Source: Trypanosoma brucei (lineage: Eukaryota). From it: a DNA stretch of 64,000 bases. Where the stretch lies: contig CM000207.1 in assembly GCA_000002445.1 (NCBI GenBank), positions 2,880,001 through 2,944,000 of the forward strand. The letters are read 5' to 3'. Numbering within the stretch: position 1 is the stretch's first letter; each line of letters begins with the position of its first letter. Made by a program: the position numbers. Below, piece by piece: positions 36,794 through 42,700 of this stretch.

Positions 36794-39700
36794 GATAATG
36801 ATAGGATAGTGTTGTGAGTGTGTATATACGAATAATATAAAAAGAGCAGTAATAATAATAACAATTGAAATTTATCAGAAGAAAATGATACAAATGAAAG
36901 AAAGAAGATCAATCAAAATTAGAATGGAAAGGGTGTCTATAAAAAAACGGCGCCTTATCCTCGTGACGTCTTATAATGGTTGTGTTACACGCAGCGACTG
37001 AAGCAAACAAAGGATAAAATTGAATTAGGTACGGAGCTCGGATACGCGACTACAAAGGAGCTCAAGATCCAGCACTGGAAAACTCAAGGAGAACTTTCAA
37101 GAAAGCCGTGTTTCACCCGAAAGCATATTGATTAAGTAACAGAAATCATGGTAGATCCAAAGGAGCTTTATTCTGATGGCGGAACCAAATGTCAAGGGGT
37201 AAGTTCAGTAGAAAATTAATCATAGAATTATTTTTTTGGGGGGGATGTAGTGACAATAAGAAAAGGATAGAGAAGATTTTGTAGGTGAGAGGTGAAGATC
37301 TAAGAAAGTTCTTAAATCTTGCTTTTTCCGGATCTATTATAATAATCCCGCGGAGAGGAGGTCTGTAATTAGCAGCGGAGAGCAGAAACAGGGTCACAAA
37401 ACTTTACCACAGCGGGTATCCAAAGCATAAAAATATAGTCACACTATCTTTACGCCATCCAGAGATGCTATGCAGCCCTTAACAAACCTGCAACCAACCC
37501 ACGCAGCGAAAATCCAAAGGCTGAAGTGCACTAAATAACTACCAAAGCTTCTTTTTTTCGAGCAGTCAAGGGACAGCCGTTTTTGAGAAGCGTTTCCACT
37601 TATTTAGGGAACTTCACACCAACTACAGCGGATAACACCAACGATCAGCAAATAGTATAATAGCGGATCTGAGCACGATGGCTAAAAAAGTATTAGGCTT
37701 TGCTCAACTTGCAACTCTAATAGTTGTGTTGTCACCGTCTTCAATTTACGCCAACGTTGGACCAGGAGACAACGCAGCGGAATTTACCACGCTGTGTCAA
37801 CTAATTTCGCTAGCAGAAGGAGCAGCACAGCCTCCAGCGGCGACAACGGCTCCAAGCGCCGAATACGACGAACTCATGAGACTAAACATGACTCTAAGCG
37901 ACGAAGCTTGGCACGATATGTTCATAAAAAGTAAAGCCGACAAAACATGGCACGACGCAATACCCGCCACCGCGAAGGACCCGGGCGGATGGGCCGAAGC
38001 CTGGCCGACCTGGAGGAAGGCAGCGGAAGAGCTAACACAAGAAGATAAGATGGCCAACATCAAAAGCCTAAACGTCAATGCAGCAAACCCTAAACAGAAA
38101 GCAATGATAATAACGGAAATACGCAAAATGGCAGACGCAGCGCAGGAACTCATGAAAAAGAGGCATACGCTCGACAAAAGCATCGAAAAGCCGCCACAGG
38201 AGTATGCCGCGGCTTTAAAAACTTTGGCCTACGGCGACAAAACCAAAAATAGAAAAACCGTAACGGCCGCCGACGCGTTCAAAGGCGGCAGCACCAGCTT
38301 CAGCACTGACTGCGGCGGGGCGGCGGCCAGCAACAAGATAAAAACAGTCGCAGCCACGATAACTTGCTTGTGCCACAAAGCAAATACACAAAACGAAGAC
38401 CAGGTGTGCGGACGAACAGTTAAGATCACGACAAACACATGGACCGTAAACGGCGCGATCGGCAGCGCAGGGGTCATAACGGAGCCCCTAGGCTTTTGCA
38501 GCGTAGAGCAAGGCACCGACTTAACAAGCTCGGAAATCACAGCAATCCTACGGCAGCTTAAAAGCTTAATCAAAGTCACATCAAACGACGGTATACTAGG
38601 CGCCTCAGACAATGGCAGCTGCGATGCGGACAAAACTCACGGCATCTGCATCAAGTTAACCAACTGGGCGGCCGACGGTAAAGTCGACATAACGAAATTA
38701 GAGTGGGCAAAGCAAGCAGTCGAGCTAGCAAAGGAGCTCAGCAGAAGAGAACACGCAGCGGCATCAGCAGCAGAAATAGACAGCGCGATCAGGAACTTGC
38801 ACAGACAGGCGTTTCGCACGACGCTCTACACAGCGCACATACAGCACAACCCGCATCAGACAGCAACGCCCTTAGATTCAACTTCAAAAAACGATAAAGG
38901 AATGGAAGACAAGAAGAAAGAATGCGAGAAACACAAAAACAACAAAACTTCTTGCACAAATGCTAAATGTATATGGGAAGGAAAAGATGGTAAATCTGAC
39001 ACAGAAGGCGAATGCAAACCTAAAGATGGAGGCAAAGGTACAGCCCAAACAAATGCAGGAACAGGAGATGGAACTGCAGGGACAGGTCCAAATTGCGCTA
39101 GCCAGACTAAAAAAGAGGATTGTGAAAAGGAAAATGTTGGAAAAACAACCCCTGTTTGCGGCTGGAGAATAGGCAAAGATAATGAACCTGATAAAGATAA
39201 AGAAATGTGCCGAAACGGTAGTTTTCTAGTAAACAAACAATTCGCCCTCAGCGTGGTTTCTGCTGCATTTGTGGCCTTGCTTTTTTAAATTTTTTCCCCT
39301 CAATTTTCCTTAAATAAATTCTTGCTATTTGAAAAAACTTTCTGATATATTTTAACACCTTAAAAATTCACCGAAAAAATTGAGCTGTTTTTTGTAAGTT
39401 GACTGTCTGATTGTCTAGAAATTTTTTCTGGCAACTTAAATTTTTTTTCTTCTTTTCCTGGTTTTTTTTTGAGGAAGTTGATGGGGGGGGTAGTTAGGTT
39501 AGTTAGGTTAGTTAGGTTAGTTAGGGGGTTAGGTAGGCTTAGGCTTAGGCTTAGGATTAGGCTTAGGGTTATTCGGTTAGGGTTACTTTTTTCCCTTTCA
39601 CTTTTTTATTTTTTTTAGTCTTTTAGTGTACAGCGGCTCCTTTTTTTGATATGAACCCTAACCCTTATTCGCCACCCCGCTTTACGGCGGCTTTTAATTT

Positions 39701-42700
39701 ATTTTTTTCTTTTCTGATTTTTTTTAAGTGATGCAGCGGCTCTTTTTTATTTTGCCACACCGACGGCAAGGCGATTTATTATTTTTATTGTTTTTATTTT
39801 ACAATACTTTGCTGTTTTTATTTTAACTTTTTCTTTATGATGCAGCGGCTTTTTTTTATATTTTGCACCATCTCTTTCTTCTCGACTTGTTACTTTTTTT
39901 GCTTTTGTGAATTTCAGCTCTGCGGTTTGCGCTGCACGCGACCAGCAAAATTAAAAAAAAACGCTGGCGCGTGGCAGTTTCGCTGCGCGAAACGATTTGC
40001 TTTTAAAGAGCAAATAAATTTAAAAATACTCATTTTGGGGAAAAGCTGATAATCAAAATTAGCAATTAAACTTCGGCGGCGCCATCTGACGCTGGCACAC
40101 GCCGGCCAAGGGTGCTCAACTTCCGGAGGTACGTTTTTAACCTAAAAGCCGTCTAGGGAAAAATGTGCACATTGAGTGAGGAAATCAAGAAGGAAGTAGA
40201 AAAAGAATCGCAAACGGGTGGAAATGCTAGAAACCCCACAAAAACCACAGGAATAAATTATGTTCTAATTAAGGCCTCTTTTTTGCTTGTAATTTTTCTT
40301 CTAGCATAACAGTTTTACGAATCATTTGTAAAAGCTTTTTCTCAGTTTTATGAGACTTATAAAAATTTATAAAAATTGCTATTTTGAAAATTTTTTTAAA
40401 AATGTTTTTGAAATATGATATATTTTAACACTTTTTGTCAACCCTTTGCAAATTGTGCAATTCATTGAAAATTTTGAAAAACTTCACTTGTAAAACTTTG
40501 GTAAGACAGAGGCATGTGTGTACACCAGTAGGGTGATTGTATATTAAAATGAATAATATATTAATTTATTTTATTTCCCCTTTTTTTGTAGTTATAAAGT
40601 TAGGGTTGTATTGCAATAGTAACGATAATGATAGTAGAAATAATAATAATAGTAATTAATAATAATAATAGGAGAGTGTTATGAGTGTGTATATCCTAAT
40701 ATGATTAGAACTATGGTGGAGGGAACGAATGAACAAGCAAAATGGAAAAAATTTAAATATCGTGAGATTGTAATAGGAGTAAGTGAGTGAGTGAGATAGT
40801 GAGATGGTGAGTGTGCAAAAGATTTTGAGGGCGCGCGAGGGATATTATTAAGGAAACAGGAGGAAAATACAGATGGAGGAAGGTGTCATACACTCAGCTC
40901 CAAACACAAAAACGACTATGGAACTATAATACATAAAGGATATGATGGAAAGGCAATGAAAGAAAGACTCCACTTTAAAATCTCAATGGAGTTGCAATGT
41001 TTTGCGGGGAAGAAGAACACGATCAAGAAGGAAAAATATAGAATAACACAACGAAATCAGAAAAATCACGGCTCATAATAAAAGAGTATGTGATTGTGCT
41101 GTGGAATTCACACATGGATGTCCAAGTACTACTACAGACAGGTTGTTGGCGAATATCGTTTTCAATATGCTGGCCACAACGGACGGACGGAGATAGCCTA
41201 GGAAACTTTTATTTTTTAATGGAGTGTTTAGGAGAGGCTGCTCCTTTACCGCTAGAATACCAATAATAGAAAATCAAAATTAATAGGTGATCAACAAAGA
41301 TGGGTTAGATGTATAGTATCAAAACTCATACAGTTCTGTATAGCGGTGGGTCAAGAACTAATGCACTAAACCCCCCGAAACCATAGACGACGATGACACC
41401 CCTACAATGGTGGCAAAGTGTGATGATAGCGCATAACAAAAATGTTGAAGTTATTCACAACAACAATCACTAATTTCTGTAAAACTACAGACTTCATCTC
41501 CAAACACGACAAATTCAGCGCCTCTAATATGTTGTAACACCAACAACACTATCCTGAGTGTTAGAGAATAACAGAACGATAAGCACATACCAGATGAGCA
41601 ATGGAAGCATTAGCATTTTCAACAGTGATGTTTATACTGGCCTGTCCCGCACAGCTGACCGACGCCTAAGCACCAGCGAAGAACCCCCTCGACGGCTCGA
41701 AGATAGCAGGGCTCTGTAAAAAAGCAGGCGGCATGCGCCAGACTGCAGCGGCGATACAAGCAGCTTTGGCAGCAGCTGAGCCAATAGTACAGAATGCTAT
41801 CAAACTACAACACCAATTAATCATCTATTCCCTTGCAGAAGCGGTCAAAAAGCGGGCTAAAATAGCAGCAATAAGAGCAGCGGCAGCGACAACAGCAATA
41901 AACAACATCTACTCGGCAGCAATAGCGAAAGCCAAAGGAGGAATATACCTAGCAGCAAAAGCAAATATCGTGGCTGGTAGCATTATAGAAGCAACCACAC
42001 TACTACTTGAACAACTCAAAGCGACCGAAGCTTCATGCGACGTCTCATGTCTAACAAATGCAGCGACCCGAAAAACAGCGGTGACGCACAGCCAGGACCT
42101 ACAGGGATGCGATAGCCTAGCAATACCTGACACGGTAAGCCTAGAAGGGCTAGAGAAATTCTCCGACCAAAGCTTCAAAAGCGGAATCCCGGAGGGAAAC
42201 GCAGCGTCGACAGAGAGCAGCTTCGCCAAATGCCTGCTGTTCGAAAACCACCCAAGTGCCACGGGCATGTTCACTGGCAACATGGCAAGCCATCTGACCA
42301 TGATGGCCGGGCTGCTGACAACAGGCACAACGGGCCCAGAAATCCGCCGGATAGACGACCTAGAGCCGACCAGCGCAAGCTCAGCGAACACACCGGCATA
42401 CCTCGAAGCAATTAAAGCCGCTAATGCGTACAAGACGACACCAGAGATAACAGATGACGACCTTTATGCAAGTATCTCTCAAGAATTAACAGGAGACGTA
42501 TTTCTGGCAGAGATCAACTTCGCCATAAACGACGTCAAAGCCAAACCCGAAGAGGTCCCAGCAACTAATGAGCTCAAGGCGGCCGCCAAGCAGATTTTTT
42601 GGCGACAGCGCCACTAAGTTCAAAAGTAAATTCATCAAGGAAATGTTAGAAGAAGAACTGGTGTTTCCATCGGAGCTGAAGCTGACGGCCAGTACAATAC

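Follow-up and report, generated by a model that had tools for sequence, protein, structure and literature searches.

Interstitial telomeric sequences in other eukaryotes are short tracts left by repair or rearrangement, or belong to the head-to-head fusion type exemplified by human 2q13. In Trypanosoma brucei, "TTAGGG-like repeats" are regarded as a marker of telomere-proximal variant surface glycoprotein (VSG) genes, according to the statement in PMC3708902 that cites Aline & Stuart 1989, and the spacing from VSG to telomere repeats in expression sites is 200-1590 nt (PMC2567434). When the active VSG is broken, activation by break-induced replication is reported for telomere-adjacent VSGs only (bioRxiv 10.1101/2024.03.22.586247), and RAP1 binds both to telomeric repeats and to sequence downstream of VSGs that is T- and G/T-rich (PMC10686619). 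The stretch analyzed here, a 64-kb segment of contig CM000207.1 (hereafter the window; positions are counted from its first letter), belongs to a subtelomeric array of VSG genes in Trypanosoma brucei brucei TREU927, and the only intact VSG of this window is followed by a flank and a degenerate repeat tract of telomeric type. The segment 39289-40440 is probably the 3' end of a telomere-born VSG cassette that is now stranded in the array. As an interstitial telomeric scar, here on a VSG cassette, it falls into a category already known; full-text searches turned up no account of interstitial telomere-like tracts within the VSG arrays of T. brucei, and an earlier mention in papers on the VSG archive is possible.

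The intact gene encodes a B-type VSG of 536 aa on the + strand (37678-39288), with matches to VSG_B (E 3e-75) and to the VSG C-terminal domain (E 1.9e-25) in Pfam. Its protein is 100% identical to XP_827760.1/EAN77430.1, which belongs to the 3.06-Mb chromosome record of T. brucei TREU927. No other open reading frame (ORF) in the window contains both domains. Because the remaining VSG-domain ORFs are fragments or pseudogenes, the claim that this is the only fully intact VSG, made in an earlier inspection of the DNA by eye (hereafter the sequence-only reading), holds.

The 3' untranslated region (UTR) of the intact VSG (39289-39358, +) terminates in an exact copy of the 16-mer TGATATATTTTAACAC (39343-39358), which is repeated at 40416-40431; when up to two mismatches are allowed, the window contains 9 matches to the 16-mer against 0.04 expected. 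The 16-mer is directly abutted, from 39359, by a T-rich flank with a run of eight G at its end (39359-39490, +), which we designate the telomeric-type (class B) VSG 3' flank. This is followed by a degenerate telomere/subtelomere repeat tract of 95 bp (39491-39585, +), delineated by Tandem Repeats Finder (TRF) and hexamer matches. Both the exact 16-mer and the TTAGGG-type tract behind it had been pointed out in the sequence-only reading, and both are confirmed. The tract is composed of four TAGTTAGGT units, a TTAGGC block, three exact TTAGGG hexamers and an end that partially resembles a 29-bp repeat; TRF reports (TAGTTAGGT)x3.9 at 100% matches, (TAGGCT)x6.3 and a row of GGGTTA period with 10 copies at 75%. 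Matches to (TTAGGG)2 with up to two mismatches number 12 in the window, compared with 3.1 expected, a count reached by 0 of 100 shuffles, and they cluster at two places only. Hereafter, the arrangement behind the intact VSG is referred to as module 1, and a second one located further downstream as module 2. Module 1 contains no two adjacent perfect TTAGGG, and module 2 contains two. The tract does not run on into a telomere or a chromosome end, as it stops at 39585 and array sequence continues to 64000. The distance from the stop codon of the intact VSG to the start of the tract is 203 nt, which lies within the published expression-site range of 200-1590 nt, in agreement with the assignment as a telomeric-VSG flank.

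For comparison we used four T. equiperdum loci, reached via a distant VSG homologue, one of which (L004) supplied the single genuine chromosome-end flank in the comparison. In L004, an A-type VSG, differing from the intact VSG of the window, is followed by a variant of the 16-mer, a flank of ~155 nt and GGGGGCAGTTAGGTTAGTTAGGG; five copies of TTAGGG come next, and 29-bp telomere-derived repeats fill the remainder of the contig to its last base. Between this VSG and (TTAGGG)5 there are 170 bp, and five 70-bp repeats lie upstream of the gene. The 29-bp units at L004:15676-15742 are subtelomeric telomere-derived repeats of the kind known from T. brucei. Over the stretch that starts at the 16-mer and closes with the tract, 204 of the 223 aligned pairs between module 1 and L004 are identical (91%, z=29). 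The homology is not confined to the repeats: the non-repeat flank aligned with L004:15497-15636 gives 104 identical pairs out of 115 (z=17.4; 103/117 and z=31.7 with another scoring), and the flank at 39359-39490 matches the T. equiperdum chromosome-end flank with a BLAST E value of 1e-30. Module 1 and L004 also share the start of the repeats, with the same junction consisting of a G-run and then AGTTAGGTTAGTTAGG.

The VSG 3' flanks that follow 16-mers within the window fall into two sequence classes, the array type in 7/9 cases and the telomeric type in 2/9. Array-type flanks, found after the 16-mers at 3063, 7139, 27163, 30247, 40416, 57324 and 63862, start with TTTTTGAYGAA..., and in 6/7 of them sequence of the 70-bp-repeat type appears within ~200-300 nt (330 nt after each 16-mer was examined; it was not seen for 63862). 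Telomeric-type flanks, after the 16-mers at 39343 and 43197, start with CTTAAAAATTCACCG... instead. None of the seven array-type flanks of the window could be aligned with the telomeric type (z<3), and a metagenome scan with the telomeric-type flank gave no match.

The assignment as a telomeric-VSG flank is thus well supported by the homology to L004, the shared junction, the existence of a separate array-type class and the agreement with the literature. The layout of a telomeric VSG, which the sequence-only reading had recognized, is substantiated in that the flank and the start of the tract are homologous to a T. equiperdum chromosome end. Judged by this homology, the stretch from the 16-mer to 39490 corresponds to the conserved flank found at real chromosome ends between a telomere-proximal VSG and the telomere repeats. 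The adjoining 39491-39585 is the innermost part of the telomere-flank repeat region, which is no longer maintained and in which blocks of variant repeats have expanded.

Beyond the tract, the + strand contains three degenerate T-rich units (39586-39925) with a core of (A)GTGATGCAGCGGCTC(T)n at 39626, 39728 and 39837, the three GCGGCTC(T)n motifs being spaced by 103 and 109 bp. An exact copy of the motif GTGATGCAGCGGCTCTTTTTT is located at 39728, one with two mismatches at 39837 and a more degenerate one, GTGTACAGCGGCTCC, at 39626. Unit 2 compared with unit 3 gives z=7.3, and the end of the flank resembles only the T-rich part of unit 2 (z=6.2, over 34 T-rich nt), with units 1 and 3 not significant. 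The first unit alone has kept AACCCTAACCCTTATTCGC (39654-39672), in which AACCCTAACCCTTA at 39654 provides one exact CCCTAA (39656) and then CCCTTA. Three copies of a motif had also been counted in the sequence-only reading, and to this extent it was right; the 105-bp tandem repeat that it described is not borne out, as the conserved core is only 15-48 nt long. A true 105-bp satellite was rejected on the grounds that TRF reports no array with a period of ~105 and that complete units have a mean column identity of 54%.

The GCGGCTC/CCCTTATTCGC unit is seen behind the two telomere-like tracts and nowhere else in the 64-kb window, and 80 kb of array sequence from T. equiperdum do not contain it. 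A coding interpretation (ATG-CAG-CGG-CTC..., a 70-aa ORF at 39837-40049) was considered and rejected, with one weak match (E 1.6e-4) among 1.84 billion proteins. The units are followed by a unique 230-bp spacer with several local hairpins (39926-40156, +), delineated by similarity search and RNA folding, for which no similarity was detected in the window or the T. equiperdum loci and no match in Rfam. RNA folding of 39905-40160 is more stable than that of shuffled sequences (z=-2.51), and three local hairpins are seen there, including one formed by CTGCACGCGACCAGC/GCTGGCGCGTGGCAG around an A-rich loop. Within 39200-44000 no RNA gene was found, as judged from Rfam matches at the gathering score or at E<=1 and from tRNA prediction.

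The spacer ends at a 5'-truncated VSG 3' end (40157-40431, +), which consists of the last 50 codons in an open frame (40157-40306) with a tail resembling a glycosylphosphatidylinositol (GPI) signal, a stop codon (40307-40309) and, in its 3' UTR, the exact 16-mer (40416-40431); a VSG C-terminal/GPI fragment with its own 16-mer had indeed been noted here. At the nucleotide level this remnant resembles other VSG 3' ends of the window (E 4e-10 and 7e-20), and no Pfam match was obtained for its 50 aa. Downstream of its 16-mer there is an array-type flank and then a 70-bp repeat (~40621-40700). Since the remnant keeps this succession from array flank to 70-bp repeat, the periodicity of the array is preserved around a presumably inserted telomeric-type cassette.

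The sequence-only reading also held that the tract is missing from the other VSG 3' flanks of the window. This is not the case, as the layout recurs at 43197-43907, behind a full-length A-type VSG pseudogene with a premature stop and frameshifts (41596-43170, +; PF00913 E 1.1e-14 on the ORF 41733-42617). The second, more diverged copy of the module (43197-43503, +) lies 3.9 kb downstream of the first. It starts with a variant of the 16-mer carrying one mismatch (43197-43212) and a T-rich flank of the telomeric type, which is 82% identical to that of module 1 (z=10.1) and 81% identical to that of T. equiperdum (z=4.1). A telomere-like tract follows at ~43337-43380, with GGTTAGGGTTAGGGTTAGAG at 43359-43378 and TTAGGGTTAGGG at 43361, and after it a single T-rich unit, with GTGATGAAGCGGCTCTTTTTT at 43459 and GACCTTAACCCTTATTCGC at 43485. 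This GCGGCTC unit carries CCTTAACCCTTATTCGC, and it aligns with unit 1 of module 1 over 87 nt (z=12.2). The order and strand of the elements are the same in the two modules. Each of them leads into a 5'-truncated VSG 3' end on the same strand, and the remnant is a different one in each case. The second remnant (43556-43907, +) is a frameshifted VSG C-terminal domain (PF10659 E 2.7e-15), whose 3' UTR is truncated from ~43951-43963 by a degenerate retroelement related to ingi. The regions upstream of the two module VSGs are unrelated, and the modules are therefore not a simple tandem duplication; duplication of the whole VSG-plus-flank module was rejected for this reason. We infer that module 2 is an older relic of the same flank family.

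The simplest account of how the flank reached the array is as follows. A break in a resident array VSG would have been repaired from a telomeric-type donor, with one end anchored in the upstream 70-bp repeats. Repair synthesis would then have proceeded through the VSG, its flank and a short stretch of the repeat region, after which the downstream end would have been joined without long homology and most of the resident gene overwritten. The leftovers of the resident gene would be its last 50 codons, the 16-mer and the array flank. The suggestion in the sequence-only reading that a telomeric VSG was captured into the array finds support as regards the relic, on the basis of the flank and tract homology.

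Several points weigh against this account. In the sole chromosome-end flank compared, that of L004, the repeats continue directly without a GCGGCTC unit, and a simple telomere donor therefore does not account for these units. The frequencies of the two flank classes are those of a 64-kb window, not of the T. brucei genome as a whole. VSG C-terminal fragments are common in arrays, so that the presence of two remnants at two modules is only suggestive. Finally, the arrival route, by conversion or by terminal extension, is inferred. Under both routes, what is seen here represents the relic of a VSG from a chromosome end.

Terminal extension is the main rival to conversion, and we consider it rather unlikely. 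It supposes that the intact VSG was once terminal and that its telomere eroded to ~95 bp, whereupon the eroded end invaded another interstitial tract and copied the sequence distal to it by break-induced replication; the array would have grown outward in this manner, and the process would have been repeated at the next VSG. Consistent with such a history, both VSGs are oriented alike, toward their tracts, and the same unit directly follows both tracts, as would be expected for invasion at an existing tract-plus-unit module. Break-induced replication to chromosome ends is also documented in T. brucei (bioRxiv 10.1101/2024.03.22.586247). However, the first module would still need another origin, and beyond their units the two modules continue with different sequences. 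Moreover, the remnant with its array-type flank is in phase with the next 70-bp repeat, which is more simply understood as overwriting of a resident cassette.

As for function, the tracts are short and degenerate, and nothing points to a present telomere function. A passive effect is plausible, in that the intact array VSG possesses ~230 bp of extra downstream homology to expression-site and minichromosome ends. One may go further and suppose that the telomeric-type flank and tract constitute a selected recombination module, retained so that the whole array VSG can be copied into an expression site; this we regard as very unlikely. It would operate by downstream crossover or second-end capture in telomere-proximal homology, or by seeding of telomerase by the tract. 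The sequence-only reading had likewise suggested a recombination module through which array VSGs could pair with telomeric copies, a possible idea that finds no support here. The idea draws on the better-preserved flank of the window's sole intact VSG (90% identity to the chromosome-end flank, against 81%), on the restriction of activation to telomere-adjacent VSGs after a break in the active VSG (bioRxiv 10.1101/2024.03.22.586247) and on the binding of RAP1 to telomeric repeats and to T- and G/T-rich downstream sequence (PMC10686619). Nevertheless, there are only two modules, one of which stands behind a pseudogene, and no sign of selection was seen. The tracts are also short and degenerate, perfect repeats never being next to each other in module 1. 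In addition, homology of 80-90% identity would be a poor substrate for recombination, given the limits set by mismatch repair in T. brucei.

A related proposal is that array VSGs with a telomeric-type flank and tract form a "pseudo-telomeric" class of donors, whose odds of activation come near those of true telomere-adjacent VSGs; we hold this to be distinctly unlikely. Copying from such a donor would begin in the 70-bp repeats and be completed at the interstitial tract, which would anneal to the expression-site telomere or seed telomerase, the gene thereby being activated whole. If true, the existence of this class would explain why the well-preserved copy is on the one intact gene, and would mean that the hierarchy of VSG activation has a further, hidden tier. 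Most simply, the present locus, a single one with two modules in a well-studied reference genome, is a neutral scar.

An entirely different origin, in which the TTAGGG tract would meet the CCCTAA tract of another chromosome end in a head-to-head telomere fusion, is extremely unlikely. The idea arises from AACCCTAACCCTTA, which is on the same strand ~70 nt beyond the tract and forms with 39556-39570 a 15-nt inverted repeat of 87% complementarity. The "CCCTAA hexamers" from which a head-to-head telomere signature had been deduced amount, however, to a single exact CCCTAA plus one CCCTTA; the first of the two stands and the second does not. The CCCTAA is located inside a unit that is conserved with module 2, with 13/13 identical positions at AACCCTTATTCGC, and because of this conservation the C-strand-like dimer is considered to have been inherited with the unit rather than made by a local fusion. 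No G-strand array abutting an inverted C-strand array was found at the junction, where there are two C-strand-like hexamers ~70 nt away with T-rich sequence in between. The + strand is T-rich on both sides (AT skew of -0.25 to -0.54 through 39900), with no inverted A-rich flank, and the sequence beyond the tract has no match to an inverted flank, i.e. no inverted subtelomere was found on the far side. The downstream VSG remnant is also on the + strand, pointing away from the junction and not inverted. Fold-back potential, which had been proposed as a check, is likewise not supported, as DNA folding is less stable than that of shuffled sequences both for 39480-39680 (z=+1.43) and for 39586-39930 (z=+0.61). 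With hexamer counts, strand composition, remnant orientation and DNA folding all taken into account, fusion and fold-back were rejected, and the head-to-head reading is largely refuted.

An assembly artefact, in which a telomeric clone was misjoined to array sequence at the tract, has next to no probability, given two independent modules with homologous post-tract sequence but different VSGs and remnants and a tract that is degenerate rather than clean telomere; in its favor is only the general difficulty of assembling subtelomeric arrays, with no result of the present analysis.

Several further features surround the modules. Upstream of the intact VSG there is a 70-bp repeat region (35998-36865, +; TRF rows at 35998-36803 and similarity), with canonical units at ~36036-36097 and 36804-36865 and a 735-bp (TAA)n expansion in between. 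The unit at 36804-36865 shows 85-91% identity to other 70-bp repeats, both of the window and of the T. equiperdum loci. Very long and almost pure (TAA)n tracts are present at 32623-33473 (851 bp), 36069-36803 (735 bp) and 60004-60417 (414 bp), all adjoining 70-bp repeat units, and they look like the expanded triplet part of the 70-bp repeat. Two minus-strand ingi retroelements, at 21418-26664 and 48956-54196, ~27.5 kb apart, each carry a reverse-transcriptase ORF of 940 aa and are 95% identical to each other; the pair brackets the + strand VSG block with both telomeric-type modules. The ingi-related element next to the second remnant extends over ~43951-45072 (+) and possibly to ~48950. It has 25-38% aa identity to ingi ORFs and no long ORF, and tblastn to the ingi ORFs gives a match at 43963-45072. 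Further upstream, two paralogous minus-strand ORFs at 13795-14925 and 17824-19152 encode 376 and 442 aa with a mutual identity of 26-27%, and neither has a match in Pfam. In T. equiperdum, the three other comparison loci (L001-L003) are on the 427-kb contig QSBY01000013.1 between 143 and 357 kb, where one VSG of 513 aa and its surroundings occur three times, ~96 kb apart; this threefold occurrence suggests large segmental duplications or an assembly repeat.

If the segment 39289-40440 is the stranded 3' end of a telomere-born cassette, it provides a sequence-level record of VSG cassette traffic from chromosome ends to internal arrays. Models in which the silent archive is replenished assume such an end-to-array flow of intact genes and seldom illustrate it. 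Since only telomere-adjacent VSGs have been reported to be activated, internal genes with telomere-type downstream homology also serve as a test case for what "telomere-adjacent" means in terms of mechanism.

One of the closest known systems is the 3' flank of telomere-proximal VSGs, as far as it is described through PMC3708902 from Aline & Stuart 1989. The order of elements is alike, with a VSG, a UTR ending in the 16-mer, a T-rich flank of ~130-170 nt, and then a G-run, AGTTAGGTTAGTTAGG and repeats of the TTAGGG type, and the locus is 91% identical to the T. equiperdum example. Unlike in that description, the repeats here break off at a length of 95 bp and give way not to a telomere but to array sequence, which continues for at least 24 kb, and the variant repeats (TAGTTAGGT and TTAGGC) have expanded into blocks. 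Compared with the 29-bp telomere-derived repeats, the last part of the tract, TTAGGGTTATTCGGTTAGGGTTA, can be aligned with one unit, TTAGGGTTATCGGGTTCAGGTGTTTCGGGTTAGGGTTA, although only a single partial unit with a deletion is present instead of an array. A standard array VSG cassette runs from a 70-bp repeat through VSG, 16-mer and array-type flank to the next 70-bp repeat. The locus has a VSG with 70-bp repeats upstream and a 16-mer in common with it, but the flank after the 16-mer belongs to a class different from that of 7/9 flanks in the window, and the array-type flank comes from an orphan VSG 3' end (40416 onward) and not from the intact VSG. Like interstitial telomeric sequences elsewhere, it is a short degenerate tract away from a chromosome end, with subtelomeric sequence on one side, that marks a past rearrangement. 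It differs from those of the fusion type, e.g. human 2q13, in having neither an abutting inverted array nor an inverted subtelomere, and from other interstitial telomeric sequences in that the tract moves with a gene cassette and recurs as part of a flank family.

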